Assembly (NCBI GenBank): GCA_965178125.1
Contig: OZ237757.1
Location: forward strand, 124,001 to 188,000
Length of the DNA: 64,000 nucleotides
Direction: 5' to 3'
Source: Bilabrum cf. latius
Lineage: Eukaryota
A program made the translations under genes and the position numbers. The notes beneath the pieces were generated by a model. That model saw only the letters and a program-made list of their open reading frames with translations. It made no database searches and had not been told where the DNA came from. Shown here one piece after another: positions 11,314 to 51,450 of this stretch. Position 1 is the first letter of the stretch; the number at the start of each line of letters is the position of its first letter.

Positions 11314-12680
11314 TTACAACCGGTTTGCGGCCGCGGCGGCCTGCGCGGTGGCGTGCTGCGCGTCCTTGACCCTCCTCTTGAACACCTCGAAGGCCAGCAT
11401 GCTGAACCCGAACAGGGGACCCACCACGGCCATGCGTGGGCCCAGGCCCCTCCAGAGGGCCTTGTGCCCGTCCTTGGCCACGGTCTTGGTGTAGCAGTCC
11501 CTCAGCCCAGTGTACCCCTGGCCCTTCTTGGCGCTCTGGATGCGCGTCTTCAGCACGTCCATCGGGGTGCACAGCCCGGAGGCGATGGCACCCGCCCCCG
11601 TGCCCGCAGCGAACACGGCCCCCAGCTCCACGGCCCCGGGCATCTCGCCCTTGGCGCCCCCGGCGAGCGCCCAGGCCGCGTGCGCCGTCTCCACCATGGC
11701 GTCCTTCGCGATGGCGTACCCAGGGAACATGACAACGGAGAAGGGGATGTCCCTCGCCAGCGTGGTCATGGACCCCGTGTACAGCCCCCTGAGACCCAGG
11801 TCCCGCACCACTTGCGCGGCGGACGGCGCCCCCATCTGCAGCCTGATCTTGACGATCTCCATCGGGTTGGTGGCGACCACCTGGGCAAGGCCCGCGCCCA
11901 CGCCCGCGGCCACCTGGTGTGCGAGCGGGAGGGGTGCCCCAGCGGGTGCCCCGGCCCTCCTGTTCCTCCTGGCGAATTCTTCTCTCAGCGAGTCGTTCAC
12001 GCCGAGCTTGATGGCCTTCTCGGGGAGCGCCCCTGCCAGCACGGCGGGGAGTCCTGCGGTAGAACGAACAGAGAGAAGCGATAATGGCGGGAAGAAATGG
12101 AAGAAAACGCACGGGAGGCTGTCAATCACGGCTCCACGACTTCGCATGGCTCGAAGGGGTGCTATCGCGGTGCACGGAGACGATTCTTGGCGGATGGGTC
12201 GTCGTCCTCGAGAGGAAGCTTGGCTGGCGGCACGAGCGAACGAAAACGCGCCTGTGCACTTCATAGGCATGCAATGCTTGCGCAGAGACGGCACGCATCG
12301 GCTGGCTGAGCTCCGCGCCATTGACGAGACAGGCAGGGAGGCGAAACTGGAGCAGCTCACCTCGGTAGAAAGCAAACGGTCCTCCTCTTGCCACTTCACG
12401 AATATTGGCCACGAGGCCCATGCCTGCAAGTTGAAAAGGTAGCACAGAGATTGCTATCGACAGCAGTGCGCAGACACAGCAGCAAGGGGACGCATGGCGC
12501 GCACTACACTTCTGCGTGTCGGTTTCACGGGGCTTCCGTTGAGGGCTCACCAGAGCTGGCTTGGAGCCTCGTCTTGATGACGTCGATCGGGAAGACCGCC
12601 GTCGTGCCCACGAATCCAGCTGCTGCTCCAACCATGAGCTTCAGGTGCAACGGAATCACTACTTCGGGCAACTGGGCAAC
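11314..12680 (-). CDS. Mitochondrial carrier (SLC25), glutamate or aspartate-glutamate carrier-like; exons 12680-12551, 12423-12361, 12053-11314
   Basis: Three carrier signatures (PIDVIKTRLQ, PMEIVKIRLQ, PMDVLKTRIQ) plus PEKAIKL and RDIPFS. Two phase-compatible GTGAG..CAG introns. Ends at TAA. The start exon is unresolved. Confidence 0.88.
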
Positions 12681-13221
12681 CTGCGGAGACAGCAGTGAGA
12701 AAACTCGGACGGCGCACCTCGGTCCCTTGCGCGGTACCAGACGATTTCTTGGCGATTCCTCGGGCCCAAGAAAATAATATTAGGGTTTATTTGACATAGA
12801 GCGGTCGCCACGTGTGATCACGAGCTTGTTGCAGATGCTGTTTGAAGCTGTACCCCAACGCAAGAACGATGACGGTACACATCTATTTGAACCAGCTGTC
12901 CGCGCACAGATAAGTCATATTGCTCACTGGTCCAACATTAGGTATCTTTGCGTATGCCATATTGTAGTTCTCGAGTGCAATCTCTGGTAAATGTGTGATT
13001 CTGCAGTACGAGCTGTCTGTCCGTGGCAGTAGTTCGTCTTCCGCCGAGCGAGCGAAAACCCCACCAGATGTCGGATTCATAACGCAACCCTTTCTCGGAA
13101 CACTCGTGCTCCTCTTTGGCCACCACTGTTCCGACGATGTTTGACGAACGTTCGATTTCAATAAAAGTTGCATGTGGGCCAAGAAAAGCATGAATCAATG
13201 TATCTTTTTCGTGTGTACTTG

Positions 13222-14964
13222 TTAGCAATGCCTTATCCGTGCCACTACCGCCACAATGTCTCGAACGTTGCTGCGCCCGTCCTCCAGGCAGGCAACAGGA
13301 CCAGCCAGCCACCTCCCGCACGGGCTGGCCAGCACCTGCCCTGCGCCCCACGGTTCTGCTGCACCCCTTCGACTGCCATCGTGACCCACACCTTCCGGCT
13401 CGAGAGCTGCTTCCGGTTTGGCGGCGCTCTCACACGCCCGCGCCCCCGGCCCCGGCCCCGCTTGCTAGTGCTCTGCCCCCCCCTCCCCGGCCCACCCCTG
13501 CTTCTCCTCCAGCCACGCCATGAACCGCCCCGCGCCCCCTCCCACGCCGAAGTACATCCGCTTCGCAGCAAATAGTGCCACCCCGGGTGGCGCGGCGCTG
13601 CCACGGCCGCCCCCTCCCGCCCCATCGGCTTCATCTTCATCTTCATCTTCATGATCACCGTCTGACTGGGCCAAGCATCGCTGGCACGCGAGCCAGTTCG
13701 CGCGCAGGTCCGATTCCCGGTAGAGCGTCTCGCTGGCGAGAAGCAGAGACACGGTGCCCTGCGGCAGGCGTGCCGATGCACCGGTTGCAACCGCCACATC
13801 CTACCCCTCGCCCACCCCTGACCCCGCTTCGGTCGAGCCCAGCAGCTGCTCCCACGGGCCTGCCGCCAGTAAGCATCGCTCCGCCCACTCGTGACTATCC
13901 TTCTCCGCCCGTTCTGCCCCCGGTTCTGCCGCCGGTCCCTTGCTGGGGCCAGCTCCAGTAGGCCCATGCTGCCTCGACCCTCGCGCCAGGGTCTCCCGCA
14001 CCGTGGGCAGTGTCCTGTCTGCGAGCACACCGGCGTTCAGGTCCTGCCACCACCACGACTAACGCAGGTCCGGGGTGGATCCTGACGCACCCGAACCATC
14101 GATTGTTGCAGGCATTGGGGCGGGGGATGCTGCCTATGCCGAGGTGTCATGTCCGAGCTTATCTCCCCTTGCCCTTGCCCCACGCACCGCGCCCGCCCCT
14201 GCCCCTGCCCCTGCCCCTGCCCCTGCTGCCACGTGCTGCATCGCGAGTCGGAGGGCGCCGCAGCCCGCCAGCCCTGTGCCGCAGCCCAGGTCAAGCACGT
14301 CGCCCTGGCCGCGCATGATCGCACTCGTCACACCGCGACGCACGAGGGAGCCGAGCTCAGCCGCGATGCCCTTGGGATGCTGGAACCCTTCGCCCGGACT
14401 GCCGCTGCTCCTCCTGATGCCCCCATCACTGTACTCACCCCTATCCCTACCCTAAGCACACACAGACACGAGGAACGACACCAGGTCCAGCGTGCACTCC
14501 CAAACCTTGAGGCCGCCCTCGTACTGACCGGGCACCACGTCAAGGCGAGCATCCAGCGAGGGGTCGATCGAAGCATACGCAGGTAGCGCAGCCGAGGCTT
14601 GTTTTGGCAGAGTACTGGTTGAACTCTTTGCATCGGCTGAAACTTCTCTTGGTCGCTTCTTGCCCCGCAGGCGAGGCAGCTCGAGGCCAGTGGTGTGGTG
14701 CTGCAACTCTGCTGGGCACCGCAGACACGGCGCTAGATCCTTAGTATCCATCGGGGTTATGATTAGTGCATCAAATGCAGCACTAGTGACAGGTGACTCC
14801 CAGTCTGCGATTTTCCCGACTCTCGTGGATGTTTTTGCAACTGTAGCGTCCATCCCAACATCCTCGCCTGCAACGGTTTCCTTTTCCACAACTATCTCGG
14901 CCCATGGATCTGCAACGATCGCATCTCCGTCAGAGTCGTCATCAAATCCAAACTCGAATGACAT
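13222..14964 (-). CDS. METTL18: Histidine protein methyltransferase 1 (METTL18/HPM1-like)
   Basis: Motifs in order: PGQYEGGLKVWECTLDL, VLDLGCGTGL, QDLNAGVL, LASETLY, AAKRMYFGVGGG, DGRSNVRDI. All are in one frame across TAGs at 14452, 14134, 14059, 13801, 13465. Ends at TAA 13222-13224. Confidence 0.9.
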
Positions 14965-17434: not shown

Positions 17435-17715
17435 CTGGGCAAGTGCAACGCAAGCGAAAGCTGTAACAATGAATGAGATAGACCGGCCGTGTATGGGCCA
17501 GTGCATTCAGTAATGATTCACGGCCAAAGCACCCACGCAGCCCGAGTAGGCGCGATCCGGAACACACGACCAATCCGCAACGAACCGCGTAGGCCCTCAT
17601 CAAAAGAGGAATGTATCAGAACACCAGTACAGCATGTTTTGTTACAGAGAGAAATGACAGGTTCACGAATCAGTACCCAACGGATCCGGTGGGCTCGCAG
17701 CGCACCCGCGAAAAG

Positions 17716-20700
17716 TTAGTTGCCTCCACCCAGGCCCCAGGTGTTCCACATCATGAGCTGGAAGTACGAGTCGTCCTCGATCCCAGCGCTCAGCAGCGCA
17801 AAGCTTTCGTTCCACTGCGCGCGAGACACGGGAGCCTCGTCCCTGGGCCCCACGCCGGCCTGCTCCCTGAACGGCAGCAAGAACTCCTCGAGGGCCTCCT
17901 GCGCCGTCTGCCTGCCAGACTTGACCGAGCTCAGGTGGCGCGCCTGGTACGCGCGCGCAAGGTCCGACGTTGTTATAGTCCCCGTCCCGCGCCGATCCAG
18001 CCTCCGGAACGCCCTGTCCACCAGCGCCAGCCGGAAGGGTGCCGGCTTGCCCGCCAGCCCCTGCAGGAAGGCGCCCACGGAGATCAGTCCGGTGCTCACA
18101 GCCCCCGCGCCGGCATCGAACCGAACGAACAGCGCGCCCAGCTCTCCATCCGTGCACCCCAGCCCTGCCTTCTCCAGCGCCCCCTTGAACTGAGTCCCCG
18201 TCAGCGCGCCCCTCCGCGACCCGTCCTGCCCCCGAACGATACGGGCGAACTTGATGAAGCCGTCGGGACCACGCCGGGCCATGGACCCACGCAGCCGCTG
18301 CAGGGCGTATTGCACCGGGTCTGCCTCGCCCCCCGCCATCGCCTTCGCCTCCGCCTCTGCCTTCGCCCTCAGGGCCGGGTCCCTGCTGCTCGCCGCCCTG
18401 TAGGCCAGCGTGCTGCCCTCTCCCGCGCCCGCCCTCCCGCCGATCATCTCACCCACGGAGGCCTGCGCGTATCCCTCCCGCTCAATGCCCCACCCGGACG
18501 CGACCATGCTGCCACCCCCGGCAGCGTGCCCCCCGCCCGACATCTTCCGCATGTCACGCACCACCGGCGCCCCTCCCCCCGTCACGTGCTCCTCGTGCCT
18601 CCGCACCGCGCCCGCGGGCACCACGCCCCTGGGGGAACCGAACGGCGACCCCACCACGGGGCCACCCTGCGTCCCCGTCAGCGCCCCCGCGGGAGCACCC
18701 CCCGCCCCCGCCCTGGGGTCCGACTGCATCCTCCACCCCCCCCACACAGCCACCGCGAAGAAGTCCCCCCCCTCCGAGCCGAGGGTCGCAGCCAGAGCCG
18801 CATGCCAGGCCTCGAAGTCCCCGAGCCTCACGGGCGCCTCCTCCCCCGCATCCGGGTAGAAGGTCTCGAGGAACTCCCGCAGCACGTCTGCCTCTTGCCT
18901 CCGCCCGCTCGCGCACTCTGGGTGGGCAGAGGGGTCGAAGGTCTCCCTGCACCGGGACACGGGCACTGCCCTCACGGGCGTGTCCACCCCCGCGGCTGCC
19001 TGCGCCTCTGCCATCAGCTTGTCGTACGCCTTGGCCACGAGGCCCTTCTGCTGCGGGCTCAGCTCGCCCATCACGGCCCGTGCCAGCTGCCCGCAAGCCA
19101 CCGCGCCCGTGGCAGGGTCCCTGAAGGCGCCCTCCAGCGAGGCCAGTTCCTCGGGTGAGAGGCCCACGCCGAGCTCCGACAGGCGCCGGGAGAGATCGTC
19201 GGGGGAACAAAGGGACTCGGAGGGGAGGTCGCCCAGCTCTCGAGAGGTGGCCAAACCCACGCCGAGGGCGTGGGCAAACCCCACCACGCCTCGCAGACCG
19301 CGGGGCACCACCCGACCTCGGATCCGCGCCACAGCCGAGGCAGCCACGCCCGCGCCCCCGCTCCCGTTGCTGGGACCCCCCGAGCCGCCGCCCCTGCCTG
19401 GGGTCGTCGGCGCCCCCCCTGCCCCGCCTCCTCCGTGGGAAAACCGGAACTCCTGTCGCATGCGCCGCAGCTCCTCCTCCACAGGAGCGGCGCCCGGCGC
19501 ATCGGGCTTGAAGCTCTGCAGCGCCTGCTGCGACTCCTGCAGGGCAAGGGCCTGCCCGTACCTGCGCCTGCCCCTGTCCCTCCCGAACCCCAGGTAATCG
19601 TCACCCCGTGCTTGTGCCCTGGGGCTCTGCGCCAGGCGCGCCTGCTCCGCCGCATGCTCGGCCTCCGCTGCGGCCCTGAGTCCATCGGGCAGCCCCACGG
19701 GGCCCCGCCTCGCAGCGGCGGCGCGCGCCCCCGCGGTGGGTCCCGCGGGGCTCTGCAGCGGGTGCTCTTCACCCCCCAGGCCCCTCTTGCCCATGGCCGG
19801 TCCCATGCCGTAGCCCGCTCTGGTGGCGTAGGGGCTGCGCATGGCGGCCGTGCTGGCAGCTCCCGTGCCCGCCACCTGCGCGTTCTGCTGCATGGCGGGG
19901 TGCGAGACGAACTGTGCCTTGGCGCTGTACGAGTGGTCCAGCCCAGCGGCCTGCGACCCCAGCCGCGTCATGGACCGCAAGATCCCGTCCTCGTCCGTCC
20001 GCGCGCGGCCCGTGAGCGAAGCGGCCGTGCCCGCGCCCCCCCCACGTCGGGAGGGTGTCCGCGGTGCACCCCCGCCCACCCCGTGGCTCCCCCCGCTGCC
20101 CACGGCCCCCCTCGGCTTGGTGTCGAAGCAGGACCACAGCACGAGACCCAGCTCCTCGTCCGTCGATGCCCCACAGCTGACCCCCTCCATCAGCAGCTCA
20201 AAGTACGGCAGCCGCACCACCCGCCCAGACATGCCAGACCCGGGGGTAGGGCCTAAAGAACCGGGGTAGGGGGCCTCCCCCTGGCCCAGCGCCTGCAGGA
20301 AGTCGCCCATGATCGCCTCCTGCGTGCGCCTGCCCGCGCGCACCGTGGGGTGCCCCTGGGGAACAAATCTCGCCCCCAGCTCCTCAAGGGGAATGGCCCC
20401 CTGCGCGTCACCCCCCCCTACGGCCCTCTCCAGCCGCTCCCAGGCCTGCACCACCAAGGCCCTCCTCGCGGCATTCATACGCCCCCGCAGCTGCGAGTGG
20501 AACTCCTCCACCACGATCACGGGCCGCCCAGCCGTGGGACTCTCGCGAGCCAGCACGCCGAACACCGCGTCCGCCAAGAAGGCGGCATCGCTGGTGGGCG
20601 GGGACAGCGTCATGCCCACGTCCTCCAGAGCAGCCCGCCACTGCCCCTCGTGCACCGCACCGTCTCCGTCCTCGTCCCGGGCCAGCATACGCTCCCGCAG

Positions 20701-22287
20701 CACTGCCACGGCCAGGGGCCCGCAGGACACGAGCATGTCTCGGAGCTTGCCCAGCAGGGGAGCCGGGTCGTCCGTGCGCGTGTACGAGTACCCCAGGGAT
20801 GACTTGCCCACCGAGAGGCCAAGCCGGCGCTGCGTGGCCGCGGCCTGGGTTGCGGCGGTGGCCGCCTGGGCCGCGGTCTGCATGCCGCTCGCGGGCCGGA
20901 TCTTGGACGTGAGCCTATCGCCGAGTTTGCCCAGGGCAGCGTCCGTGGGTGCAGACGATGGCACCGAAGACGAGGGGCCCCCCGTCCCTGGTGCCTGCCC
21001 CTCCAGCCCCCACACGGCCCAGATCGCCATGGCGAACGCGTTGTCGTCCTCAGTCCCCGCGGAGATGTCCGCGTAATAGTCCTCGAACTCGCTCACGTGC
21101 ACCCGCCTCCCCCTCCTCTGCACCCCGAATGTCTCGAGGAACTCCCGAAGCACCTCCTCTTCCCCCCTGCGGCCAGCAAGCACCTGTGGGTGCGCCTTTG
21201 CGTTGAACAGCACCGCCACGTCGTCCATGGACACCTGCCCCGTCCCGCTGACGTCCATCTTGGCAAAGGCCGCGTGGATAGCAGCCCTCCTGGCAGGGGA
21301 CAGCTCCCCGCGGATGAAGTCGCTGAGCGCAGCCGCCCCCGCGCCGCCTCCTCCTGGTCCCCCGTGCGCTCTCTCCAGCCCCACCACGTGCTCCACGAGC
21401 TCCCTCGCGTGTTCCTCCGACAGACGGATCGAGCCACCACGGAAGCTCCCCAGAGCAGCCAGCAGCTGGGCAGCGGAGAGGGAGCCCCCGGTGAGTGCGG
21501 CCTGCGACTCAAGGTGCCTCCTGAGGTAGCAGTGCGTGGCCGTCCCGATCCTGGCCTCTTGTGCCCTGATCTGAGCCGCGATGGAGGACGCATCCTCGGT
21601 GGCTTCCTCCTCCTTGTCGCCGCTGTGGCGGGGGGCCACGGAGGCTGCCTGCCTGCGGAAGTCCTCGCGGTTGAGCAGCCGGTGCACCTGCATCTTCTGC
21701 TCGTGCGTCTCGGGGCATAGCCCCTTTGTTCCCTGGCGGTGGGACCTGGACCTCTGGCAGGCATCGATCGCCTCCGAGGAGGACATGCCGTACACGAGGC
21801 CCAGCAAAATGGAGCCGATGGTGCCCGTGCGGCCGTTCCCGTCGTGGCACTGGAGGTACAGCACCTCCCCTGCCTTGATGTGGGACAGCAGCTTGAGAGC
21901 GAACTGCGCGACGTCCTCGTCCTTGGTCGTGGCCCCGTCCCTCTCCCCGATGGGGAAGTGGATGTAGGACAGCGGCCGGCCGTCGGGGCCCGTCACCTGC
22001 GGCATGCGCCCCGCCTCGGCGATGAGACGCGCGTCCTCTGCGTAGGGTGTGGCCGTGACCACGTTGGAGCCCCCGAACGTGGAGCGGAGCTTGGCACCCT
22101 GCGAGCCCGAGGCGCCCGTGGAGGGCATGTCGTGCTGCAGGCACACAAATGTGGTGACACCGGCCTCGAGCAGCTTGCTCAGATTCGCCACCATGCCCTC
22201 CGTGGACAGGGGGCCTGGATGCGGCCCCGCCAGCAGGTGGTCTCGCACCAGCCAGTTTGACTGCACGGGACCGTGCATCGACTCCAT
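17716..22287 (-). CDS. Cys-based (PTP/DSP-like) phosphatase domain fused to four calcyphosin-like EF-hand modules
   Basis: The N-terminus has SNW...AGPHP, GVTTFVCLQ, HFPI and the CX5R motif YLQCHDGNGRTG. Repeated modules follow, e.g. AFAKMDVSGTG...HPQVLAGRRGEEEVLREFLETF...FEDYYADISAG. Ends MMWNTWGLGGGN-TAA. Start is uncertain (track ORF begins 22431). Confidence 0.8.
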   Translation of the reverse strand: MESMHGPVQSNWLVRDHLLAGPHPGPLSTEGMVANLSKLLEAGVTTFVCLQHDMPSTGASGSQGAKLRSTFGGSNVVTATPYAEDARLIAEAGRMPQVTGPDGRPLSYIHFPIGERDGATTKDEDVAQFALKLLSHIKAGEVLYLQCHDGNGRTGTIGSILLGLVYGMSSSEAIDACQRSRSHRQGTKGLCPETHEQKMQVHRLLNREDFRRQAASVAPRHSGDKEEEATEDASSIAAQIRAQEARIGTATHCYLRRHLESQAALTGGSLSAAQLLAALGSFRGGSIRLSEEHARELVEHVVGLERAHGGPGGGGAGAAALSDFIRGELSPARRAAIHAAFAKMDVSGTGQVSMDDVAVLFNAKAHPQVLAGRRGEEEVLREFLETFGVQRRGRRVHVSEFEDYYADISAGTEDDNAFAMAIWAVWGLEGQAPGTGGPSSSVPSSAPTDAALGKLGDRLTSKIRPASGMQTAAQAATAATQAAATQRRLGLSVGKSSLGYSYTRTDDPAPLLGKLRDMLVSCGPLAVAVLRERMLARDEDGDGAVHEGQWRAALEDVGMTLSPPTSDAAFLADAVFGVLARESPTAGRPVIVVEEFHSQLRGRMNAARRALVVQAWERLERAVGGGDAQGAIPLEELGARFVPQGHPTVRAGRRTQEAIMGDFLQALGQGEAPYPGSLGPTPGSGMSGRVVRLPYFELLMEGVSCGASTDEELGLVLWSCFDTKPRGAVGSGGSHGVGGGAPRTPSRRGGGAGTAASLTGRARTDEDGILRSMTRLGSQAAGLDHSYSAKAQFVSHPAMQQNAQVAGTGAASTAAMRSPYATRAGYGMGPAMGKRGLGGEEHPLQSPAGPTAGARAAAARRGPVGLPDGLRAAAEAEHAAEQARLAQSPRAQARGDDYLGFGRDRGRRRYGQALALQESQQALQSFKPDAPGAAPVEEELRRMRQEFRFSHGGGGAGGAPTTPGRGGGSGGPSNGSGGAGVAASAVARIRGRVVPRGLRGVVGFAHALGVGLATSRELGDLPSESLCSPDDLSRRLSELGVGLSPEELASLEGAFRDPATGAVACGQLARAVMGELSPQQKGLVAKAYDKLMAEAQAAAGVDTPVRAVPVSRCRETFDPSAHPECASGRRQEADVLREFLETFYPDAGEEAPVRLGDFEAWHAALAATLGSEGGDFFAVAVWGGWRMQSDPRAGAGGAPAGALTGTQGGPVVGSPFGSPRGVVPAGAVRRHEEHVTGGGAPVVRDMRKMSGGGHAAGGGSMVASGWGIEREGYAQASVGEMIGGRAGAGEGSTLAYRAASSRDPALRAKAEAEAKAMAGGEADPVQYALQRLRGSMARRGPDGFIKFARIVRGQDGSRRGALTGTQFKGALEKAGLGCTDGELGALFVRFDAGAGAVSTGLISVGAFLQGLAGKPAPFRLALVDRAFRRLDRRGTGTITTSDLARAYQARHLSSVKSGRQTAQEALEEFLLPFREQAGVGPRDEAPVSRAQWNESFALLSAGIEDDSYFQLMMWNTWGLGGGN

Positions 22288-22832
22288 GCCTGCGAACGAG
22301 GGGAGCGGCGTAGGGATGCATCGAAGAGATTGCTCATGGAGCTGTATGTACGAGCTTCGTACATGCAAGCACCGCACCGACCGGCGAGGTAGCCGCTTGC
22401 GACACGGATCCGAGCGAGTGAACCGCCACACGTCCGAACACGTGAAAGTTGCCCAACAACCTTTGTCCCAGGTCTACACGCACAAACATGATATTTAACT
22501 TGCAGTGCGCTGTGAAAACATCGAGCGAGGCTACTGTAGCGACCAGTTTCCGCCATGAGACTCACGATGTGGCGGAGCAGGAGGAAAAGCTTGCATCTTC
22601 GCGTTCCGGGTCGCCCAGAAGGAAGCCATTGCGCTTTCTATCTAGTCACTACCGATCCAAAACACAAATAACGTATAGCACCGTTGTACTATATACGGAT
22701 CTGGCGAGGGTTGCACCGCAATGCAGAGCCCGCGCGAGTTGCCGGTGAGACGTAACGTGCAGTTTAAACCCCCAAAATCATAAATCGGATCGACAGGACC
22801 ACGCTATATGGCCAGTCTACGCCGTCGTAGGG

Positions 22833-24937
22833 ATGTTTTGCTCCAGTGAGACGATGTTACATACATCCAGTATTAGAATGCATGTCGTGGTATGTTGTAG
22901 TGCCTGCTTGTGGAAAGAATGGGGCCATATTCATCGCTTCACCTCTTAGCGATTTCAAGATGTGCATGCCTGTCTTGGCCCCAGAGCTTCGTGGTCCATT
23001 GTACGCAAACCATGTACGATGATCATGTGAATGCATCTGACTGGTTCGGCTGAACGCTGTTAGTACGGCTCAGTCCGCCCACCTACCGCGCCCTACCTGC
23101 AGTCCCCCAAAGCACGTCTGCCGCTTCGGACGCCCTCATTGATATAGTTCGGCACCATGCCGCTGAAACAAGATGTTTACCTGCTCCTGCCTGCGCAGTC
23201 TCTGGCGAAGTCCCTCGGGACCCTGTCGTGGATCCCGCCACGGGCATGCTGTTCGAGCGCTCGCTCATCGAGAAGCACCTGCAGCTCACAGGCACGAATC
23301 CCTCCACTGGAGAGCCCCTGGACAAGGCCTCTCTAGTATCGGTCAAGTCACAGGCCCCCCAGCGCCCCCGCCCTCCGTCGATGACCTCCTTCCCCTCCAT
23401 GCTGGCTGCCTTCTAGTAGGAGTGGGACGGGCTCATGCTTGAGACGGCCAAGATGCGCACCGAGCTGGACTCCACGAGGCAGAACCTAGCCAGGGCGCTG
23501 TACCAGTACGACGCCGCATGCAGGGTCATCGTGCGGCTGCAGAAAGAGAGGGACGAGTCTAGGGCGGCGCTGGCGGCGGCGCAGCAGGGGCTGGCCATGG
23601 CGCACGTTGGCGCCGCGCAGGTAGGTTCCGCAGGGGACAACGGGGGGGCGGGGGCGGCGGCGGCGGCCGGGGCCGCATCCGGCGCCGGTGCCTCTTCGGG
23701 TCCCCAGGGGCTGGCCGGGCTGGAGGGGGATGCGCTGGCGGCCGCCGTGTTCGCCCGCGCTGACGAGTGCAGCCAGAGGCTGAGCAAGCGGCGGGTCGGT
23801 CGCAAGCCAGCGAAGAGCCTCGCCACGCAGGCCTCCGTCGGGGCCTACGGCGAGACGTCGTCCTTTGCGCCCCACAGCAGCGACAGGGGTCAGGTGCACT
23901 GCATGGCACTGCACCCGGACCGGGATGGCGTGGTTGCAACCGGCGGTGCGGACAAGGCCGTGGTGCTGTGGGACTCTGCGGAGGGGCGGCAGGTGACTCG
24001 GCTGGAGGGGCTGGGCAAGGCTCCCTGCTTCGTGGGTGTGCTCGGCAGCACGGAGGGAGCGATGGGGGCGGGCGGCGCGGGGGCGGGGATGGTGCTAGCG
24101 GGCAGCGGCGCGGGTGACGTGCTCGGCTGGAGGTCATCGTCATCGTCGGAGGGGGGTGACGAGTGGGGCGCGGTGCTGAAGTCGGCCCCGCACGGAGGGG
24201 CGGCCATCGTGGCGGGCGCGGTGCACCCCGCCGGCGACCTCGTCCTCACGGCTGGGTCGGACGGGCGCTGGGCGGGCACGGAGCTGTCGCGAGGCACGGT
24301 GGTCTGCGGGGCGGCGACGGAGTCCAGCAGATCGGGCGCCTCGTCCTCGTCATCCTCCTCATCGGGTGCCGCCGTGGAAGCCTCCCGGCGGCCCGGGGCG
24401 CTGTCGGTGCACCCCGACGGCGGGCTCGTGGGGGTTGCAACCGGGCCCGTGGTGGAGGTGTGGGACCTCAGGGCCAGCGGGGTGCAGCTGAAGCTGCACG
24501 ACCCGGGGCAGGCCGCGGCCGTGCGGTCCATCGCCTTCAACGAGAACGGCTACCTGGCAGCAACGGGTGACGCTGGAGGCGCGGTGCGGCTGTGGGACGT
24601 GAGGCAGCCGTCGGTCAAGCACATGTCCGAGCTGGCGGGGGCAGCCGATGCGGCACAGGGGAGTGGGGCCGCGGCGGCGGTGGCTGACGGCGTGAGGTGC
24701 GTCCGGTTCGACTGGTCGGGGCGGTACCTGGGCGTGGCGCTGGGGGGTCGGGTGGAGGTGCTGGGCGTCAAGAAGTGGAAGCAGCTGGCTAGTGTGGTTC
24801 CGCAGGGAGAGGGCGCGGCGCCGTGCTGCCTTGGGTTTGGGAAGGACGCCAAGACGATGTTTGTGGGCGGCGGAGACAGGCTGGTGCGGGTGTTCGGGGC
24901 TGGTGCTGGCGCAGGGCAGCAGGGTATGCAGCAGTGA
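22833..24937 (+). CDS. PRP19: Pre-mRNA processing factor 19 (U-box, coiled coil, WD40); join(22833..22845,23199..24937)
   Basis: U-box MFCS/ISGEVPRDPVV...FERSLIEKHL, then PRPPSMTSFPSMLAAF**EWDGLMLE, ALYQYDAACRVIVRL and WD40 repeats. Tandem TAG TAG at 23414-23419. Ends at TGA. Confidence 0.95.
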
Positions 24938-25625: not shown

Positions 25626-27484
25626 ATGTCGCAACGATCTGGCAGGTGGCTGCAAGAGGAGCACGACCAATTCGAGCTTGCCCTACAGGAGTTCGGTAAA
25701 GACTGGAAGAAAATATAGGAATACGTCCCGACGCGAACTGTCGTACAGATCCGCACGCATGCCCAGGTGAGTCCGGCTTGCCGGGCTAAGGAAATGAGCC
25801 AGGCTTGTTGGCCTGCTTGCCGAGCTGTCAATGCCAACGACATGGCACTACTATGCCGAATAGATACACTGTATTGTCATCGCAGAAATATTTTGATAAG
25901 CTGAGCAAGAGTGGGCAGAAGCTGCCAGAGTTCATCGCCGACGTAAGAGTTGTCGCCCACGTGGGCATGCCGTGCACCATCAACTGAAGCATACCTCATG
26001 ATATCAGCATCAGCGTGACGAATCGTATCATTCCAAGGTTTTTGCAGGATGTTGTCGCCCAAGGATCGTCTTCCAGACCGGTGATAAGCACCGCGCAGAA
26101 ACGTACCGCTCGGGGCCGGGGCGACAAGGCGCGACAAGGGGCAGGCGGAGCAGGACGCCGGCAGAGGGGCAAGCAGCAAAGCAGTGGCCGTCAAGTTGCA
26201 GCCGAGGCGGCGCTCCATAGCACGTACCACCCCATGCCAGGCGTGCCGCACGTGCCTGCCTCAGGCGTGGATTAGGACGCGGGGGGTGCAGTGGGGCTGG
26301 GCCCCAGGGGAGGGGGAGGGTCTATGCTTGGAAGCAAGCGCGGGTTCTCGGGGTCGGACGCTTCAGGTCGCCCGAGTAAGGGCCGCAGAATCGGGATGGG
26401 GTACGATTCCGGCGAAGGGGCGGGTGCGGGTGCAGGTGTAGGGGCGGGCTTTCCCGACGCGACTGGGGACGCGAGCGGTGCGATGGCACTGGCGCAGATC
26501 GCGAGCCGGTCGTATTTGTCCCATCAGCAGCAGCAGCAGCAGCCCTATGGATACCAAGGTGGCCTGCCCAGCGGGGACGGCATTGGCATGCAGCCGGGCA
26601 TTCCTTCTGCATTGCCTTGGGGAGCCATGGGAATCCCAGCTGCAGGCCTCCTCCCAGTGCCCGTGGGGTACCCCCCCATGCTGGGGACGCCCGCCCCCAT
26701 GATACCCCCGGGGCGCTCGCTGACCCTCCGACACGCGCGCCTGACCACGGCGCATCCCAGCGATGACCTTGGCCTGGTTCTGGAGGACGGAGACTCCTTC
26801 CCCATGGTCAAGGAGCTGCCCAGGCTCAGGAGGGCTGGCCCGGGCGAGGCGGCCAAGCAGCAGCCGGGGACCGGCCTGGGGGTATCTGCTTCCTCTGCTT
26901 CCTCTGCCTCTTCTGCATTGTCGTCATCCGGAGGGGTGGGTGAAGGAGGTCTCGTGGACGGCGTGACGGCCACAAGCGGAGCTGTATAGGTGGGCAACTG
27001 CCTGGTGGGGGTCAGCGGGGTTCTGTGTTACGGTCTGAGCGCCGCCGCTGCCCTGCAGGTGATCGACGCAGCGAGGCAACAGGCCACTAGCAGGTCTGTG
27101 GTCCTGCATTTCTCCAACCAGGCCCCCCCCGCCAGGTCTCAGCCGCTTGCCAAGACGCACATCCAGCAGGCAGTGGGGCAGCTCTTCTCCAAGCTCGAGC
27201 TGCAGCGGGTGCAGTCGGCGGTGGAGAAACACATGGAGTAGCTGAAGAGCAACGGGGTGCCTCTCTCGGCCACAGGGCTGGCGGGGGCAGGGGCAGGGGC
27301 AGGGCCAAATGCAGGGGCAGGGGCTAGCGCCAGCAGCAGCAGCAGCAGCAGCGCGAGCGAGGCCCCGGCAATTGTAGACACTGCTAGTGCTGCGATGAGC
27401 AATGTGACCAGCTCAGGAACTGAAACGCAGCCAGCAAATGCTGGCACTGGGGACCTTGGTAGCGCGGGAGGCGGCGTTGGGTAA
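25626..27484 (+). CDS. SHAQKYF-class MYB-domain protein with a C-terminal PDZ-like region; join(25626..25766,25886..25942,26048..27484)
   Basis: GRWLQEEHDQF...FGKDWKKI*EYVPTRTVVQIRTHAQ/KYF. Two phase-0 introns. TAGs at 25716, 26273, 26987, 27239. Ends at TAA 27482-27484. Confidence 0.85.
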
Positions 27485-31550: not shown

Positions 31551-31969
31551 CGAGTGTTTCACCTGGTGGATCTCGAGATTGGTTGGAGGATAAGGGGTTG
31601 CATTGCACTGTGGTGGATCACCAGGCTTGCGGGGGCCGCGCTTGCGGGTGGCGGGCTGCTCTTCAGCGTGCCTGTGGGAGGGAGGGGGAAGGGGGTGCTA
31701 TGCTTGCAGTCTTTGGTAGCATCAGTACGGAGGCCGTATGGGTGGTCTGGGCGAGAGATGGGACCGAGGCAGGGGTTTGATGCGGCCTGCAAGCCGGTTC
31801 TGGCACGGTGGAAGGGGGGGGTGGTGGAGGTGCCTGAAGGCGCGGCCCCAATGGCTTGGGCCCCGACTGGCTCGCTTTATTCCATGGGATCTTAAGGTTA
31901 AAAGCATTTGTCTCATTCTTATAGCTTGCTTGCAGTCGTCAATGGTCGTACAATCCGTGGCAGAGCGCG

Positions 31970-33625: not shown

Positions 33626-33765
33626 ACTGCTAGCATTGCGGCGAAGTCTAGCTTTAGGGGCCACTGTACGTTGCCATCGATGTCGCACTCGGAGCCGGAA
33701 AATTGTGACGGACCGGCAACTCCCAAACAGAAGCTATTGCAGGGACAGATACGGTGCTGTTTGCA

Positions 33766-34803
33766 ATGCCATCAGCTTCAGATGCAACTACTGATACTGT
33801 GCAAGGGGTCCAGGGCGCTGTGATGGCCAGGGTTATGACTCTGGGCTTCACGGACTACCTTGCTATCCTTCTGTTCGTGCTCACGGTTACCATCCTGCTA
33901 CGCAATGCTGCTCGGTCTGTGTTGGGTTCCAGGAGCGTAGGATCGACCGATTCCTTTGATGGTTTGGTTATGCGTCAAGTTGGCGAGCCGGTTGCCGCCA
34001 AAAAGCTGGAGAAACCAGACGCGACCAAAGGTGCGAACGTAACGGGGGATGCGGCAGCCGGGGATGGCGGGAAGAAAGACGAGAAAGAATCGGCAAGCCA
34101 AGCACCCGGTGAAGAGGGATAGCACGTCAAGTTTGAGCACGTACCCATGCCGGAAAGTGCGATGCTTCGTCGTTCCGACGGCTTCCTCCGCCTCATGAAC
34201 TTGAGGCGGAGTGTGCGCTTCTTCGATTCGAGCAAGCCCATCCCCGAGGGCGTCCTGGAGCGATGTATTATGACGGCAGGCACGGCTCCAAGCGGCGCCC
34301 ACGTGCAGCCGTGGACGTTTGTGGTGATCCGGGACCCGGCCAAGAAGCAGAAGGTGAGGGAGCTGATCGAGGCAAAGGAGAAGGAGAACTACTCGGGGAG
34401 GATGCAGGACCAGTGGGTGGGACACGTGAGGGGCCTGGTGGATGCACTGCACGGCACTGCAGCTGGAGACGCCGTGCTGAAGCCCTACCTCACTGAGGCA
34501 CCCGCCCTGGTGGCCGTGATGATGCACCGTAGCACGCCAGACAAGCCGGTGTACTACGGCATGGAGTCAGTGGGGATCGCCACGGGCATGTTCATCGCCG
34601 CCCTGTAGAACGCCGGCCTGTGCACGCTCACGTCTACCCCACTGGGCGCGGATGCCGAAATCAGGCAGGTGCTCGGGAGGCCACAGAGGGAGAAGGTGTT
34701 CGTGGTCATGCCCGTTGGATTCGCAAGCAAGGAGTGCACCGTGCCGTACAGGGCGCCTAAGGAGCTCCGCAAGTCCAAGAAAAAGGTGATGGTCGAGGTG
34801 TGA
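33766..34803 (+). CDS. IYD: Iodotyrosine deiodinase-like flavoprotein (nitroreductase superfamily) with an N-terminal membrane anchor
   Basis: Motifs RRSVRFF, AGTAPSGAHVQPWTFV, ENYSGRM, KPYLTEAP, YYGMESVGIATG, AAL*NAGLCTLTSTP, LGRPQREK, PVG. TAGs at 34120 and 34606. Ends at TGA. Confidence 0.88.
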
Positions 34804-38131: not shown

Positions 38132-38652
38132 TGATTCTTAAGCAATGGCTGTATTGTGTATTTTATTGGCTCTTTCCGCTGCGGCACAAGCGACCGGCCC
38201 TGCAGCAGTACTACGAACGTTGCTTGGCGACCGGCTCTGAACAAAATAATACAAACTCTCCTAGCTTCAACATCGAGAAACGCTTCGGCCCTCGCTCACC
38301 CCAAGAAATGTGAGATATGCGGCAATTCTCGATCTGTATGCTGAAACTTGTGAAACTGATTCTTCAAACTTTAGATTGCTGGCGTTCTACCCCGGAAATT
38401 GCGCTCATGTGGGTGTCGGCATCCGGTTGTAGTTCAAGGCGGTGGAATCCGCCGGTTCCTCGCCTATCTTGCCTTGCGATGGCTCAAGTGCTGCATCAGT
38501 AGCGTACCATTGTGCCAATAGTTGTTCTTAGTTTATAACACTTGTGTGTTACAAACCGCAACTATCGCCATTGGCGAGTAGTGTACCAACAATCATGATT
38601 TCGCTCTTCGTGGGTCCATCTCCTTTGCACGACCACGCAGCCACGAGAAACC

Positions 38653-44780: not shown

Positions 44781-44814
<34 letters not shown>

Positions 44815-47800
44815 CGTTTTAAACGGACCGCAATCGTAGCACCAAAATCCATACTCGTCACACTGGCCGACTGCACCCGGGGGTTTAGGTGGTGTGTACA
44901 GCATTGGAATTGGCGGAAGCGGAGGGTCAGGGAAGTACCAGTCAGGGCTTCACATGCAGGCGCATGTAGGTGCACCGCATGGCAATACACTACCCTTAGC
45001 AGCGCAATTGATTCATCAGGGCCCTGCTGACACTGCAGTCCCAGTGCCCATGGGCCCACCCGTAGTGTCAAGCGGCGCAGTGGCGCGGCCTGCTGCTGCC
45101 ATCAGGATGACTGCGGGTCACGCGCGGCACACGGCGATCATGCACCCCTTAGGAGGGGCCACAACTGCGGGCGCGCACGCAGGGTCCACGGACGTCTCCA
45201 GCAGGCGATCTGCATAGCAAGTTCACGCCGGTCAAGTCACATAGACCCAGGGACACAGGCATGGGCACGGCCGTGGGCATGATGACATGGTGCCTGCTGG
45301 GTTCCCTCCCGCCAGCACGCAGGCCAGACTGGCAGTCAGGAGCAGCCCGTGGTCCAGGGTGCTGGCTCCCTCCCAGGTGCACGGCATCTTTGCCAGATTT
45401 GAAATGGAGGGCGCGATGAGCACACCGGTGCAGAGCGTGCTCATCTCCGGTGAGCGAGCGAGCAAGCAGCCCAGTGACATCGCGCTTGCCGCGTTGCCAT
45501 GCTTTCGAAATCGAAAATGAACGATTCTGGACACGCTCGCGCCCACCGAATGTGTATGCCTATCTTCTTACCGCTTCTTCTATGCGCAGGGGTGTCGGCC
45601 CAGGGGCCTGACCACTGCAACGTGATCATAGATCTGCATGGGAGGCACAGTGACCGAGCCACGATCGTCGCAACGCTGCCCCTGAGCCTGCCGCAGCCAC
45701 TGGGAGCTGCCAAGGCAGCACCCAAGCGGGCAAAGCTGTCTGCATCTTCGCGACCGTCCTCCAAGTCATCCACGCCGTCGACCTCGCCTCAACCACCGAG
45801 CAAGCCAGCCAAGCGACGACGAGCCAAGGCCGGCCGGCCCACGGTCCGGGATGCAGGCGTCCTGCGGTCGATCGAGCAGGCCATCCGGAGCAGGGGCCAC
45901 GGGGCGGGGAGGAGGCTCCTCTGGATGAGGTGTGCGGAAGGGACGCTCTCCCGCGAGGGTGCAATGCACTGCATCCGGAAGCACCCCGACATGCGAGCCA
46001 GCGCGGCGAAGTCGGACCTCCACGGCCAGGCGGACGCGCTTGCCGACGTGAGCTGGACGGGTTTCAAGCGAAGATGTCGCATGAGGGATGACGAACAGGC
46101 CCGCTGCGAGGTGTGCAACGGTGGCCTGTCGCTGGAAGACGACGCCATTTTGATCTGCGACGGGTGCGACTGCGCGGTGCACCAGAGGTGCTACGGCGTG
46201 GAAAAGGTGCCCGACGGCGACTGGCTCTGCCACACGTGCGATGCAGGACTCACGGAAATGCCGCCGCAGTGCGCTGCATGTTCGCTGCACGGCGGGATCA
46301 TGTGTCGCGCGGCGGGATCCGAGAGGGAGCGCCAGGACTCCAGCTGGGTGCACGTGGCGTGCGCCGTATGGTGCCCCTGCCTGCTGCTGGCGGACGGGAG
46401 GTGCCAGCTGGCGGTGGGCGTGCTGCCGTCCGGCGATCTCGTGTCTGTGAGGCAGGCCGTGCAGATGGACGTGCTCAGGAGGCAGCGCATGTACGACGCC
46501 ACACTGAAGCAGGCGGTGCAGGAGCACGTCACGAGGGCGAGGACGCTGGACGGGGCCTTGAATAGACACGCGGAGCAGCGCAGCGATCCCAGTGGCACTG
46601 CAACCTCGGACCCGGGAGAGCTGACTGAGCACCCCCTGCCCGGAGAGCTGGTCAAGCAGTGGCTCGGCTTGCCGCGGGCATCCCCCTGTGGCCCGCTGCA
46701 CGTGTCCGTGTCCCCGCAGCAGAACCACTTCCCTCAGTGCGCCGTGTGCAAGTCGGCGGGGGGGTCCATGGTGCAGTGCGGGGACCCTTGGTGCCAGGTG
46801 CAGATGCACGCCATGTGTGCTCTGAGGGCCTGCCTGCCCTTCTAGTTTGAGAGCAAGGACGGTCCCGGGGCCACCACGAAGCTGGAGTGGATGGGCGACT
46901 TCGGGCAAGGCGTGGGCCTGCCTCAGTTCGACCCGAACGACCCGCTGGGGGTACCCAGCAGCACGCACACGCTCGGCTACGGCAGCGTGGCCGCGGCTGC
47001 CGGCCTAGTCCGCACGACCTCCATGCTGCACAGCTTCGAGCTCTCCATAGGGTCCTCTGACCTCAAGAGGCACAGGAGGCGGGCAGAGCCGGCCGTGCAA
47101 GGGAACCCCAAGCTGCCCGCGTGCCAGGCCTCCTTCGACTTTCGCCTGGAGTGCCCCTGTTCCCACCCGTGGAGGATGCTGGCGCCCTCCTCGGCCGCCG
47201 CCACCATGCCTGCACTGCACTGCAGCGCGGTGCGGCTGCCCGGTCCGGTGCTCCGCGCGGGCCCTCCCGCCTCTGATGGCGCGATGCCGCCCGTGGTTGA
47301 GGATGAAGACGCGCGGAGGTTGGAGACAGTGTATGGAATGGAGGAAGGGGAGCTGGGCTGGCTACCGGATGACCCCGGCCTGGCGGCAAAGGCGGAGAAA
47401 TCGCGTGCGGGCCATGACTCTTCGCCTCCCAAAGCATCGAGTTCTTCTCCCGGCAGCGGCAGCGTGCCACAGCCGTCGTCTTCGTCCCCTAGTCAAGCGA
47501 CAGCTGCCGACAGCTCCATCGATCCGCTGTCACCCTTGGCGGCCGACGTGTTCATCCAGGTAGGCATGCGCCGGAGGAGGCCGTGGGACTGCCCCTGCGC
47601 CGATCTCGAGTGCTGGGAGCCCAACCGGGGCGGGGACAGCGGCCGGGCCTTCAAAGCAGTGCAAGAAGCGGAGGCTCAAGAGGAGGAATCAGAGGGTGAG
47701 GAGGAAAAGCAGGAGGACATTGTCGATGAGGTTGATGAGGACGATGAGCACCCGCCGGGTGGGGATGCAGCGGCGAGCGCCCAAGCAGACGGTGGGCATG

Positions 47801-50800
47801 GAATCGAGGATCAGGTGCCCGGCACCCTGCCGCGCGGCCTCTCCTGGGAGGAAGCCAGCCGCAGCGCGTGGCACGCGGATGGCATCTTCCCTAGAGCGGT
47901 ACTTCCCGAGACGCTAGGTATTCAGAGGACGCCCCTGCTGCCGGTGGGGCGGCGCCTCGCCACTAGAGCGGTGTGCTGGGTGGCGCAGGCTCCCGATGTG
48001 AAGCCCTCCGCGAAGTCTGCCGTCAAGCAGGCAGCGCATGCCATCCAGCAGCTGTTTGTACCGTTACCCAACGAAGCCTTGGGTGTTAATGAGGCTGGAT
48101 CCGGCCAGGCGATGACTAGCAGCAGCAGTCCTGCAAGCAGTCAGGTCGGTGCGAGTACAAGTGCAGGATCTGCGTCTAGCTCGGATGCGCATGGAGCTAG
48201 CCAGCCCCAGCCCCAGCCCCAGGCCCGCACAAGCGAGCTTAACACCGCTAGTCACAGCTCCGCAGGGTCACAAAAAGGCCCTGAGACCGTCTTCTTGTAC
48301 GAGCCGCTGCTCCCCGACTGGCGGCAGAGGCTCAACACGGAGCCGCCGGTGCCTCGCAGCGACACTCACCCCACATAGGGCTCCACCGCGGCGACTGTTC
48401 CCTGGATGCGGGCGCTCCCGTTCCTCCCCACCGCCGCCATGTCCCGCCTGGCGCTCTCCGATGCAGCCGTGCACGCGGCGCAGGAGACCACGGCGCTGAA
48501 CGCCCTGCAGACCAGCGGCGGGATGCCGGCTGCGCTCGCCAAGGTTCGTTTCACGCACGATGCCGCGCTGTACGCAGCAGCCAGCGGGCGCCCCGTCAGC
48601 CTCGACGAGCCGGAGCGCGTGCTCTCCTCTGGTACCCCCGCCTTCCATGCCAAGCTGAAGAAGCTCATCGAGCTTACGGTGGCTCTGCGGAAAGAGGACC
48701 TGGCTAGAGCCAAGCAGGGTGTGGACGGTGAAAGGAAAGAGGCTGGCAGTGAGCAGCAGGGGCAGGGGAAGGGGCAGGACCCAAAGGCGGTTAGCACGAA
48801 TCCGAAGGCAGCAGCCACAATTGCGAGCTCGGCAAGCGAGGCTCTCGCAGACGCCCTGGACGCCGACCCTGACATGAGAGATCTGTCGCAGATCTGGGGG
48901 GGGTTCGCGGCGGTGCTGGCCCGCGTGGGCGGGTGGTCGCCGACCGTCTCGCCGGTATTCCGGCTGCTTGCCATGGCGGTGGGTGCGCCCCCGCTGGGCA
49001 ACGAGGAGCGGGCCGGCATCTCCGTGCCGCTGCCCAACACCTCTGGGCTGCCGGACAAGTGGGCGAAGGGCGGCAGGTCGGGCAACCACACGGTGGCCAA
49101 GTGGGTGTTCAAAGACAGGACGGCTCGCAGGCAGCGACTCGTCCTCGTTGGCCTCACCCGCGCGGCCTCGGCCTCCTCGAGCCAGGCCTGGTGCAGGGAG
49201 AGGCAGGCTGCAAGGGAGCTCATCGGCAGCGAGGCATCACCGCCAGAGGGCTCACCCTTGGCCAGATCGTCCTCGCAGGATACCCCATCGGCGTCCACGC
49301 CGCTGCCTGGCTCTTCTCCTGTTGCCACACCCGCCGGGCACAAGCGATGGGCGGCGCAGGTGAATGCCCATCGTGACGTGAACATGCCCGCCCACCTGGG
49401 ACTCAGGGCGGGCAGCATCCGGCTGCGACGCGTGCGTGGCAGCGGCGACACCACCGGCGCAGGTGCAGGTGCAGGCCAGCAGGATCGAGCGCCCGCCTAC
49501 CGAGTGGTGAGCAGGAGCGGCGAGTGGGGCCCATCGTGGATCCTGCACAGGCTCTACAGCGCCGTAAGCCAGCGCATCCGAAGCATGGGTAGGACGGGCA
49601 CGCGCAGGCCGCCCCCAGTACCAGTCCGTTGCTCTGACAGGGGCGGCTTGATGCTGCTGCACCGCATCCATGCGAGGCTGTTCTCCGACCCAGAGCAGAG
49701 AGAGGCCGCCAAGCTGGCTGCTGCCCGCGTAGAGGCACTCCAGCTGGAACAGCAGCTGCGTCAGGCCGAGGATGGCAAGCAACACGAGGATATTGGACGA
49801 TAGTCTTTGCAGTACGACTAGAGAGGACCATCGATTGGATCCAAGCGGTCCGCTTCTGCTGCCGGGTTGGGAGGAGTGTCGCGAGACCGTGCGGGTGGAG
49901 AGGGCAAGTCGGACGACGGCATGAGCAGCGAGTCGGAGTCAGACGGCATCGAGACAGATTCAAGTGACGAGGACGAGGATGCTGGCAGCAACACGCGCGT
50001 CAGCAGCTCGAGCCCCAGCTCACCTATTAAGCGTCGCAGCCATAGTATCCAGTCACTCGGCCCTCGGCGGAAGCGGGGGCCATCCGGCCACGGGCTGTCC
50101 ACCGCCCTCCCACTCGTCATGGAGCGGGTGCTCCTCGGAGCGCCCATGCCGCCGCCCGTGCTCGTCTCTCGCATGAAGGCGAGGGCGCCTCTGCTGGACG
50201 CCGAGCTGGAGTCACTGCAGAGGGTCAGGGAGGAGCGGGTCCGGAGGGAGAAAGAGGCGAGGCTTGGAAACTTGAGCAACCTTCACAACCAGAGGCAGCT
50301 CAACCTCCTCCTCGAGTCGGCGGCATGGGGCCAGCGCAACCCGGACGTCGCCGATCCGCGAGACCTGAAGCTGGATGCCCAGAGAAGGAGGAAACCTGCG
50401 GGGGCTCCCGGGGCCCAGGGGCAGGCATCAGCACAGAGTGTGGGCCAAGCATCATTGGATTCCGCGCCGGAAGGCATGCGGATTCAGGTGCCCCCGGGTG
50501 GGCCTGGCGCTGGTGCCAGCGCTGCCTCTGGCACTGGTGATGCGGGCCAGCTCCCGATGGGCTCGCCTCTAGGTACGGAGGATATCGTCACACCGGCCGC
50601 TAGTGCCAGCAAAGGATGGGTTGGGCGAGCAAAGGGCGATGCGGGCCCCGCTGCCCAGCCCTCTGCGTCTGCTGCTGAGACCGCAGGTGGCAGCTCGAGT
50701 GGGTCCAATGTAGAGGAGGAGCTGGGCGAGGAGGAGCTGAACGACCCCATGGCACGGGCGCGGCAGGCCGTTGAGTCGCAGGTGCGGCCTCCGCAAGTGA

Positions 50801-51450
50801 GCGAGATAGAGAGGTGGGTGCTTGCCCGACGTGCGCTGCTGGAAGGGATCGGAAGCGGGGAGGATTACACAGGTGGATTTGGGCTGCAGGCAGCGGCCTG
50901 GGACGGCCTCTCCCAGCTGGACGAGGTCGCGAGGGACGCGCCCGGCTCATTCTAGCTGGGCGGGTCTGTGGGGAAGGTTGGTTTGGGGCGGTCTCGCATG
51001 CCTCTTGCGCTGCTGTGGGCGGGCCACCCCGCGATTCGGCTGCGAGCCATGGCGGCCATGCGGCCGTGGGCCCCTCTGCTGGCAGCGCGCAAGAAGGTCA
51101 AGGCAGAGGCGGGTGCAGGCAATCCAATAGACAAGCAAAACTCTCCGCAGCAGCGGGATGGCCCCTCAAATGGGCAGGAAGCCATGAAAGGGAGCAAAGG
51201 GGCGGATGATGCGGAGGCAGACAGTGGTGGGGGCAGCCGGTAGCAACCAGAAGCGCATGACTCTGGTAGCACAGCGACCACCGTATCGCCGAGCCCGCCC
51301 GAGCTGCTGAAACGCAGCGTGGTTGAGATGTGCGGAGGCTCGCTCGTGGACGAGTGCCTGGTGATGGAATTCGGGGACATGTTCCCAACGGAGAATCGCC
51401 TGCACGCGCGGCTGGGGGCAGTGTCCTCTGCACTCGGCGGGTTCGAATAA
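44603..51450 (+). CDS. Large PZP (PHD-Zn knuckle-PHD) chromatin protein, BRPF/JADE/AF10-like; join(44603..45449,45590..51450)
   Basis: Motifs CEVC...ILICDGCDCAVHQRCYGV..VPDGDWLCHTC, CAAC...WVHVACAVW, CAVC...QCGDPWCQVQMHAMCA. Track ORFs join in frame across nine TAGs (44837, 45215, 45242, 46843, 48376, 49801, 49819, 50953, 51241) and one phase-1 intron. Ends at TAA. The 5' end is uncertain. Confidence 0.78.
44684..44812. repeat. Coding minisatellite: ACCACWTCCGGTAGCAGC units (TTSGSS) followed by (AGC)n poly-Ser
   Basis: Seen directly: five TTSGSS-type units plus AGC runs. Confidence 0.85.

Follow-up and report, generated by a model that had tools for sequence, protein, structure and literature searches.

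Does TAA still terminate translation in a nuclear genome in which TAG stands inside genes? The question is raised by a 64-kb stretch of contig OZ237757.1 (positions 124,001 to 188,000; hereafter the window, with positions counted from its first letter), for which an earlier note had described about 60 in-frame TAG together with five genes, between 11,314 and 51,450, that end in TAA. With a probability of roughly 80%, UAG specifies glutamine in the nuclear code used here while UAA and UGA remain terminators, which is the pattern of NCBI translation table 15. In such a code UAG and UAA are uncoupled, since TAG is sense while TAA and TGA terminate. The earlier note had proposed coding of this type, and the proposal is supported by TAG at glutamine columns of conserved families, by TAA at the C-termini of protein families and by the coding context of the two triplets. 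Its premise, that the meanings of UAA and UAG as a rule shift jointly, is in line with what two published accounts of variant codes say on this point (PMC5304391; PMC11687900).

TAG is a sense codon, probably for glutamine

About 10 of the at least 37 TAG codons in coding sequence were compared column by column with homologs (Table 1). Homology continues on both sides of TAG in the Prp19, TBCC, CD39, iodotyrosine deiodinase (IYD)-like and METTL18-like genes, which confirms TAG as a sense codon. At conserved columns it stands opposite glutamine in four of four cases, namely both positions of the tandem TAG in Prp19, the CARP domain of TBCC and the AALQNAGL motif of the IYD-like protein, and we therefore read it as glutamine. 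The first Prp19 position is Q in human, in worm and in the database proteins P0002, P0003 and P0006, and the second is Q in P0002, the closest relative. In the IYD-like gene, homology goes on for about 50 residues beyond TAG, while the TAG of the CD39 gene faces S or R in a variable column. The fifth TAG of the METTL18-like gene must be passed by translation because the family motif EDGRSNVRDIV lies after it.

The TAG codons are also present in contigs that resemble RNA. Contigs of runs X5, X7 and X8 contain 10 joints of 92-307 nucleotides (nt) with GT..AG or CT..AC ends. The records of these runs are not labelled RNA, and RNA content was judged from the splice joints, whose presence indicates that the runs hold spliced RNA and that the genes of the window have short canonical introns. 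RNA-like contigs with splice joints also span TAG sites, with no differing letters there; an X8 contig (23199-23725), for example, covers the tandem TAG of Prp19 without any other letter.

Sense TAG is not confined to the window. A metagenome contig (L001; 3,229 nt, 58% GC) encodes a Prp19 that is 65% identical to that of the window and carries one in-frame TAG of its own, opposite an arginine of the window protein, with homology continuing to a TGA stop. Because of this codon, sense TAG is common to at least two fairly divergent relatives. No in-frame TAA was found in the L001 Prp19 reading frame, and Prp19 ends at TGA in both sequences. The head-to-head order of Prp19 and the phosphatase gene is likewise kept in L001, which includes the start of the latter (1-1330, minus strand), and the window (22300-22500, minus strand).

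TAG use seems uneven among genes, and is perhaps tied to expression level. The phosphatase/calcyphosin exon (17716-22296, minus strand) has no TAG in 1,533 codons, where about 5.7 would be expected at 37 per 9,964 codons, and the highly covered carrier exon is also without TAG.

Table 1. TAA and TAG codons examined in the window.
Feature	Position	Strand	Details
TAA terminator, mitochondrial carrier	11314..11316	-	last exon 11314-12052; introns 12053-12359, 12423-12549, 12679-12925
TAA terminator, METTL18-like (Hpm1-type) methyltransferase	13222..13224	-	coding sequence about 14964 down to 13222, five in-frame TAG
TAA terminator, phosphatase / four-calcyphosin-module gene	17716..17718	-	main exon 17716-22288; intron 22289-22564
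TAA, end of SHAQKYF-type MYB gene	27482..27484	+	exons to 25763, 25883-25942, 26048-27484; second TAA 2 codons on
TAA, end of PHD/PZP gene frame	51448..51450	+	45478-51450, 1,990 codons, six in-frame TAG; second TAA 4-5 codons on
Possible sixth TAA end, doubtful; TM2-domain frame 31039-31593	31591..31593	+	TM2 Pfam match at residues 22-50 only
Tandem TAG TAG, Prp19	23414..23419	+	'QQ' in P0002, 'QN' in P0003/P0006, 'QD' in human and C. elegans
TAG, TBCC C-terminal (CARP) domain	5562..5564	-	Q in human TBCC (ACQQLRIH) and Leishmania TBCC (ACHQLRLK)
TAG, iodotyrosine-deiodinase-like nitroreductase	34606..34608	+	AAL[TAG]NAGL vs AALQNAGL in three IYD chains, E 5e-51
TAG, GDA1/CD39 apyrase	2723..2725	+	rat NTPDase1/2 alignment through TAG and 55 residues on; gene ends at TGA 2924
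TAG, fifth and last in METTL18-like gene	13465..13467	-	80 codons before TAA

TAA at the ends of genes

All five codons named in the earlier note are TAA in the frame of the genes that they close. The gene labels given there fared less evenly: carrier, phosphatase-calcyphosin and PZP are supported by Pfam or the Protein Data Bank (PDB), METTL18 by PDB and profile searches but not by Pfam, and the large last exon of the MYB gene has no Pfam match.

The carrier gene (Pfam Mito_carr, E 1.7e-36) reaches TAA 21 residues past the FE.FK end of the last helix, and most of 40 aligned homologs end 7-20 residues past it. P0011, a carrier relative with 98% identity, ends at the same residue as the window protein. 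RNA-like contigs run colinear and unspliced across this TAA, and contigs from two studies stop at 11296.

For the METTL18-like gene, which has no Pfam match at E<=0.1, a weak match, which does not cover the C-terminus, was found to PDB entry 4rfq, 'Histidine protein methyltransferase 1 homolog' (E 1.7e-7). A PDB search with the C-terminal 140 residues did not extend to the final motif. We therefore used a profile built from the 102 proteins of 260-400 residues among the 150 matches listed, out of 626 relatives at E<=0.001. This profile aligned (E 1.7e-54) through query residue 574 of 580, including the final motif EDGRSNVRDIV. TAA lies 6 residues past profile node 305; among the 102 homologs, the median distance from that node to the protein end is 4 residues (interquartile range 2-6). 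GC content drops from 0.67 to 0.45 after the TAA.

The phosphatase gene has PTP-SAK and EF-hand matches in Pfam. Its C-terminal 200 residues match calcyphosin 3e3r (E 5e-16) up to residue 202 of 204, and the calcyphosin-like 11yj_1A (208/208) and RIB22 (191/191) also align to their ends. All three alignments stop at query residue 196 of 200, and TAA follows 4 residues further on. A protein homolog search with the C-terminal 300 residues gave no match at E<=1e-5 and was probably swamped by low-complexity words. One contig (17637-18379) is colinear across this TAA and ends 79 nt past it. Given the colinear contigs, neither the carrier TAA nor the phosphatase TAA is intronic. The contig ends at 11296 and 17637 both lie before the next in-frame TGA, at most a weak hint that they are transcript ends. 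In these three of the five genes TAA thus stands at the family-typical C-terminus, shortly after the last family motif, as the earlier note had observed.

The spliced upstream exons of the MYB gene read ...WLQEEHDQFELALQEFGKDWKKI[TAG]EYVPTRTVVQIRTHAQKYF, which we take to be a SHAQKYF-type Myb repeat. The last 40 codons of this gene are low-complexity, and GC content at third codon positions (GC3) is 0.47 on both sides of its TAA. The PZP gene (Pfam PHD_2 and zf-HC5HC2H_2) shows a coding score of +13.0 before TAA and -11.5 after it. GC3 falls across every TAA except that of the MYB gene (0.95 to 0.55, 0.70 to 0.55, 0.82 to 0.42 and 0.80 to 0.68, the first and third pairs being those of the carrier and the phosphatase). 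The last 40 codons of the TM2 frame score -6.2.

Codon census of TAG, TAA and TGA

To avoid circularity, the codon-usage score gave zero to TAA, TAG and TGA alike, and only TGA was allowed to break a segment. The 41 best non-overlapping coding-like segments comprise 11,497 codons and contain 37 TAG, no TGA and three TAA. All three TAA fall within the last 7 codons of their segments (at 17716, at 51448 and 4-5 codons past 51448), so that no internal TAA remains, in agreement with the earlier note, which had found none inside its gene models. Its figure of about 60 TAG is matched by 63 TAG in 19 long stop-to-stop frames, but some of these codons precede a start or are intronic, and a conservative count gives 37. 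At least 20 genes share these 37 or more TAG.

In a flank test, triplets in all six frames were examined for 40 codons on each side, with a threshold of 5 bits of coding score. Coding-like sequence on both flanks was found for 21 of 766 TAG, none of 389 TAA and 1 of 1,455 TGA. With the threshold at 0 the numbers were 47 for TAG, 1 for TAA and 12 for TGA, and the single TAA belongs to a shadow frame on the antisense side, where further stops are close by. Fisher's test on the flank counts separates TAG from TAA (P = 2e-4) and does not separate TAA from TGA (P = 0.32). These counts and P values show that TAA behaves like TGA and unlike TAG.

About 18 genes end at TGA, where the coding score drops, and five at TAA; a sixth TAA end, at 31591, is doubtful. 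In none of the genes does TAG have to be taken as the terminator. A comparison of open reading frame lengths under alternative codes was dropped as a test, since freeing TGA lengthens random frames most.

Alternative readings of TAA and TAG

Several points weigh against a terminating UAA beside a glutamine UAG. A window of 64 kb gives modest power. Codons ending in A are avoided (CAA 46 vs CAG 386, AAA 43 vs AAG 289, TTA 7 vs TTG 60), TAG makes up about 8% of glutamine codons (37/469), and sense TAA would in any case be infrequent, GC3 being 83% in coding sequence with Pfam support. If TAA:TAG followed CAA:CAG, 4.4 internal TAA would be expected beside 37 TAG, and the probability of finding none is 0.016. 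It would fall to 0.001 with the less certain count of about 60 TAG. By itself, the absence of internal TAA, of which only about 4.4 are expected in 64 kb, is thus suggestive of stop use but not decisive. An X5 contig extends 278 nt beyond the carrier TAA; where transcripts end cannot be read from contigs. In the METTL18-like gene, the next possible end is 8 codons on, within the range of homolog tails, which reach up to 12-15 residues in 9 of the 102 proteins. The C-termini of the MYB and PZP proteins are without homology support, so that these two ends are placed by the drop in coding signal. Finally, five further aligned TAG stand at variable, uninformative columns (A, A/Y, S/R, D/N and, in L001, R).

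UAA might be context-dependent, acting as a stop at gene ends and rarely as an amino acid inside genes, as described for Blastocrithidia nonstop (PMC12152300; PMC12153298). Such usage is compatible with zero occurrences in about 11,500 codons, and nothing in the window speaks positively for it. We consider it unlikely, given that internal TAA is absent both from the window and from the Prp19 frame of L001.

We regard a coupled code of the table 6 type, in which TAA and TAG both encode glutamine, only TGA stops and TAA is too rare to be met in 64 kb, as quite improbable. The strong avoidance of A-ending codons and the small expected number of sense TAA speak in its favour. Such a code calls for in-frame UAA in conserved genes and for UGA as the sole terminator, whereas we found no internal TAA and five TAA ends. 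The five genes would have to run on to the next TGA for 36 (carrier), 8 (METTL18-like), 65 (phosphatase), 145 (MYB) and 30 (PZP) codons, through extensions that score -12.6, -7.6, -26.8, -90.2 and -9.5 bits, respectively, and have a GC3 of 0.38-0.73. Three of these extensions (carrier, MYB and PZP) hold further TAA, four of them in the MYB frame. The position of three TAA at family C-termini and the probability of 0.016 for the lack of internal TAA also argue against a coupled code.

It is very unlikely that a sense TAG stands for some amino acid different from glutamine. Published UAG-only reassignments include leucine, serine, glutamate and lysine, and the variable columns here face A, Y, S, R or D/N, with the TAG of L001 opposite an arginine of the window. 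All four conserved columns, however, carry glutamine, including the 'QQ' of the nearest relative opposite the tandem TAG. The standard code, with in-frame TAG as pseudogene lesions, assembly errors, unspliced introns or RNA-edited sites, can be dismissed: no point was found in its support, and against it stand 37 or more TAG in at least 20 genes with no internal TAA or TGA, intact homology on both sides of TAG, RNA-like contigs that keep TAG unchanged though spliced elsewhere, and the same trait in a second species.

A possible route to a glutamine UAG

If UAG is glutamine and UAA a terminator, UAG would be decoded by a tRNA-Gln with the anticodon CUA, which would be one base change away from the CUG isoacceptor for CAG, the dominant glutamine codon here. 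Under standard wobble rules C34 pairs with G only, and such a tRNA would therefore leave UAA unread. On the side of termination, eRF1 would have lost recognition of UAG and kept that of UAA and UGA, as proposed for Iotanema spirale, and a tRNA with the anticodon UUA should not exist. ARAGORN and Rfam searches of the 64-kb window gave no tRNA genes and no Rfam families, and the gene for eRF1 lies outside the window. Mutation pressure in a GC-rich genome would be expected to erode TAA, not TAG, which makes simple codon disappearance an unlikely route.

Relatives and lineage

Beyond two close relatives, the best database matches reach no more than about 51% identity to proteins of the window, and the closest homologs with names come from oomycetes, chytrids and various other groups, at identities of up to about 50%. 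Gene calls of relatives in the databases (P0001, P0002 and P0131) are cut off at TAG. A scan of viral contigs with the carrier protein, which looked for a virus-host link, found no relative. We tentatively suggest, with considerable doubt, that the window and L001 belong to an undescribed, poorly sampled, flagellated, mitochondriate and GC-rich lineage which gained UAG as glutamine independently and kept UAA. If this is true, the change was driven by the route through tRNA-Gln(CUA) and eRF1 and not by the loss of a rare codon.

Other genes and sequence features of the window

The window has a GC content of 63% overall (58-70% along the 64 kb) and carries nuclear eukaryotic genes on both strands. 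With TAG read as sense, 13 of the 19 long frames have Pfam matches, as do 4 of another 10 frames. The families include GDA1/CD39, CFAP300, TBCC, mitochondrial carrier, Prp19, NAP, phospholipase B, PHD fingers, nitroreductase and an ADH-type oxidoreductase; an MSS51-like protein is also encoded. The nitroreductase (33709-34803, plus strand) is membrane-anchored and strikingly like animal iodotyrosine deiodinase (mouse IYD, E 5e-51), an enzyme that is unexpected in a protist.

Many proteins of the window are interrupted by Ala-Gly runs (AGAGAG...) that derive from GC-rich dinucleotide-like repeats, for example at 3-1427, 14200 and 36900, and the RNA contigs are seemingly cut at some of these runs. 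A gene at 56050-59082 (plus strand) contains a long near-perfect tandem repeat at 57000-57700 with mucin-like TSTSSATPTAS units, which precedes an unannotated C-terminal domain.

The motif TGTAA overlaps or follows three of the five TAA stops within 70 nt (11314-11318 and 17642-17646 on the minus strand, 51461-51465 on the plus strand), and for two of these copies RNA-like contigs stop 10-18 nt further on. Some genes may use TGTAA as a poly(A) signal. A general role in polyadenylation was rejected, since only 1 of about 19 TGA ends has TGTAA within 130 nt. Back-up stops are seen behind several TGA ends: TGA TGA after the phospholipase B gene (38129-38134, plus strand), TGA-Gln-TAA after a leucine-rich repeat gene (51552-51560, minus strand), and TGA directly followed by TAG after gene 59254 (59251-59256, minus strand).

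Significance of an uncoupled code

Codes that treat UAG and UAA differently are few; the two accounts cited here name them from a single fornicate and a single rhizarian, one genus of green algae and a few ciliates (PMC5304391; PMC11687900). Each independent case tests whether wobble decoding and eRF1 geometry normally tie UAA to UAG, and whether eRF1 is able to give up UAG and nothing else. A GC-rich genome is instructive here because mutation pressure would take away a codon other than TAG. Moreover, real genes and a second species are available for tracing the changes in eRF1 and tRNA. In practical terms, standard gene callers cut short most proteins of this organism, P0001, P0002 and P0131 being such fragments, and annotation of the genome must use table 15.

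Comparison with known codes

A close counterpart outside the ciliates is the fornicate Iotanema spirale, in which UAG encodes glutamine and UAA and UGA are stops; for this species the exchange T32G in the GTS motif of eRF1 has been proposed to cause loss of UAG recognition (Panek et al., 2017; PMC5304391). Iotanema and the window share the same codon table, with UAG alone turned to glutamine and UAA kept, in a non-ciliate protist. They differ in that Iotanema is an anaerobic metamonad, whereas genes for mitochondrial carriers and for an MSS51-like protein are present in the window, whose GC content is 63%.

Among ciliates, UAG alone is reported to encode glutamine in Hartmannula sinica, Trochilia petrani and Protocruzia tuzeti, and leucine in a phyllopharyngean group (McGowan et al., 2024; PMC11687900). 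The evidence described for the glutamine cases resembles that from the window, with C-terminal alignments that end at UAA or UGA and with UAG distributed like a glutamine codon; in those ciliates, however, 93-100% of the aligned protein ends are on UAA (PMC11687900). The window is dominated by TGA instead, with about 18 TGA to 5 TAA. Its high GC content and short GT-AG introns set it apart further, as typical ciliate macronuclear DNA is unlike this.

UAG and UAA are also uncoupled in two other non-ciliate nuclear genomes, those of the rhizarian exLh, where UAG is leucine (PMC5304391), and of the green alga Scotinosphaera, where it is serine (PMC11687900). Both have kept UAA as a stop, as we propose for the window, but the amino acid differs, being glutamine here.

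The coupled assignment of UAR (UAA and UAG) to glutamine, as in table 6, is reported for many ciliates, Ulvophyceae, Hexamita, Streblomastix and Amoeboaphelidium protococcarum (PMC11687900; PMC6299283). These codes share UAG as glutamine with the window, yet UAA is also sense in them, whereas in the window TAA stands at gene ends and not within genes. Amoeboaphelidium is not the source of the window, since the genomes described for that genus have about 40% GC (PMC10608142), compared with 63% here, and since UAR is reported as glutamine there. Viruses offer one more parallel: in crAss-like phages TAG encodes glutamine (PMC9523058). The codon table is shared, but the window belongs to a cellular nuclear genome and contains housekeeping genes as well as spliceosomal introns.

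In the literature searched, we found no description of a GC-rich non-ciliate in which UAG alone encodes glutamine. Since 2017, publications have described several lineages in which UAG alone is reassigned, and the kind of code is therefore already known. The code of the window is probably a further case of this published kind, in a lineage that appears to be new.

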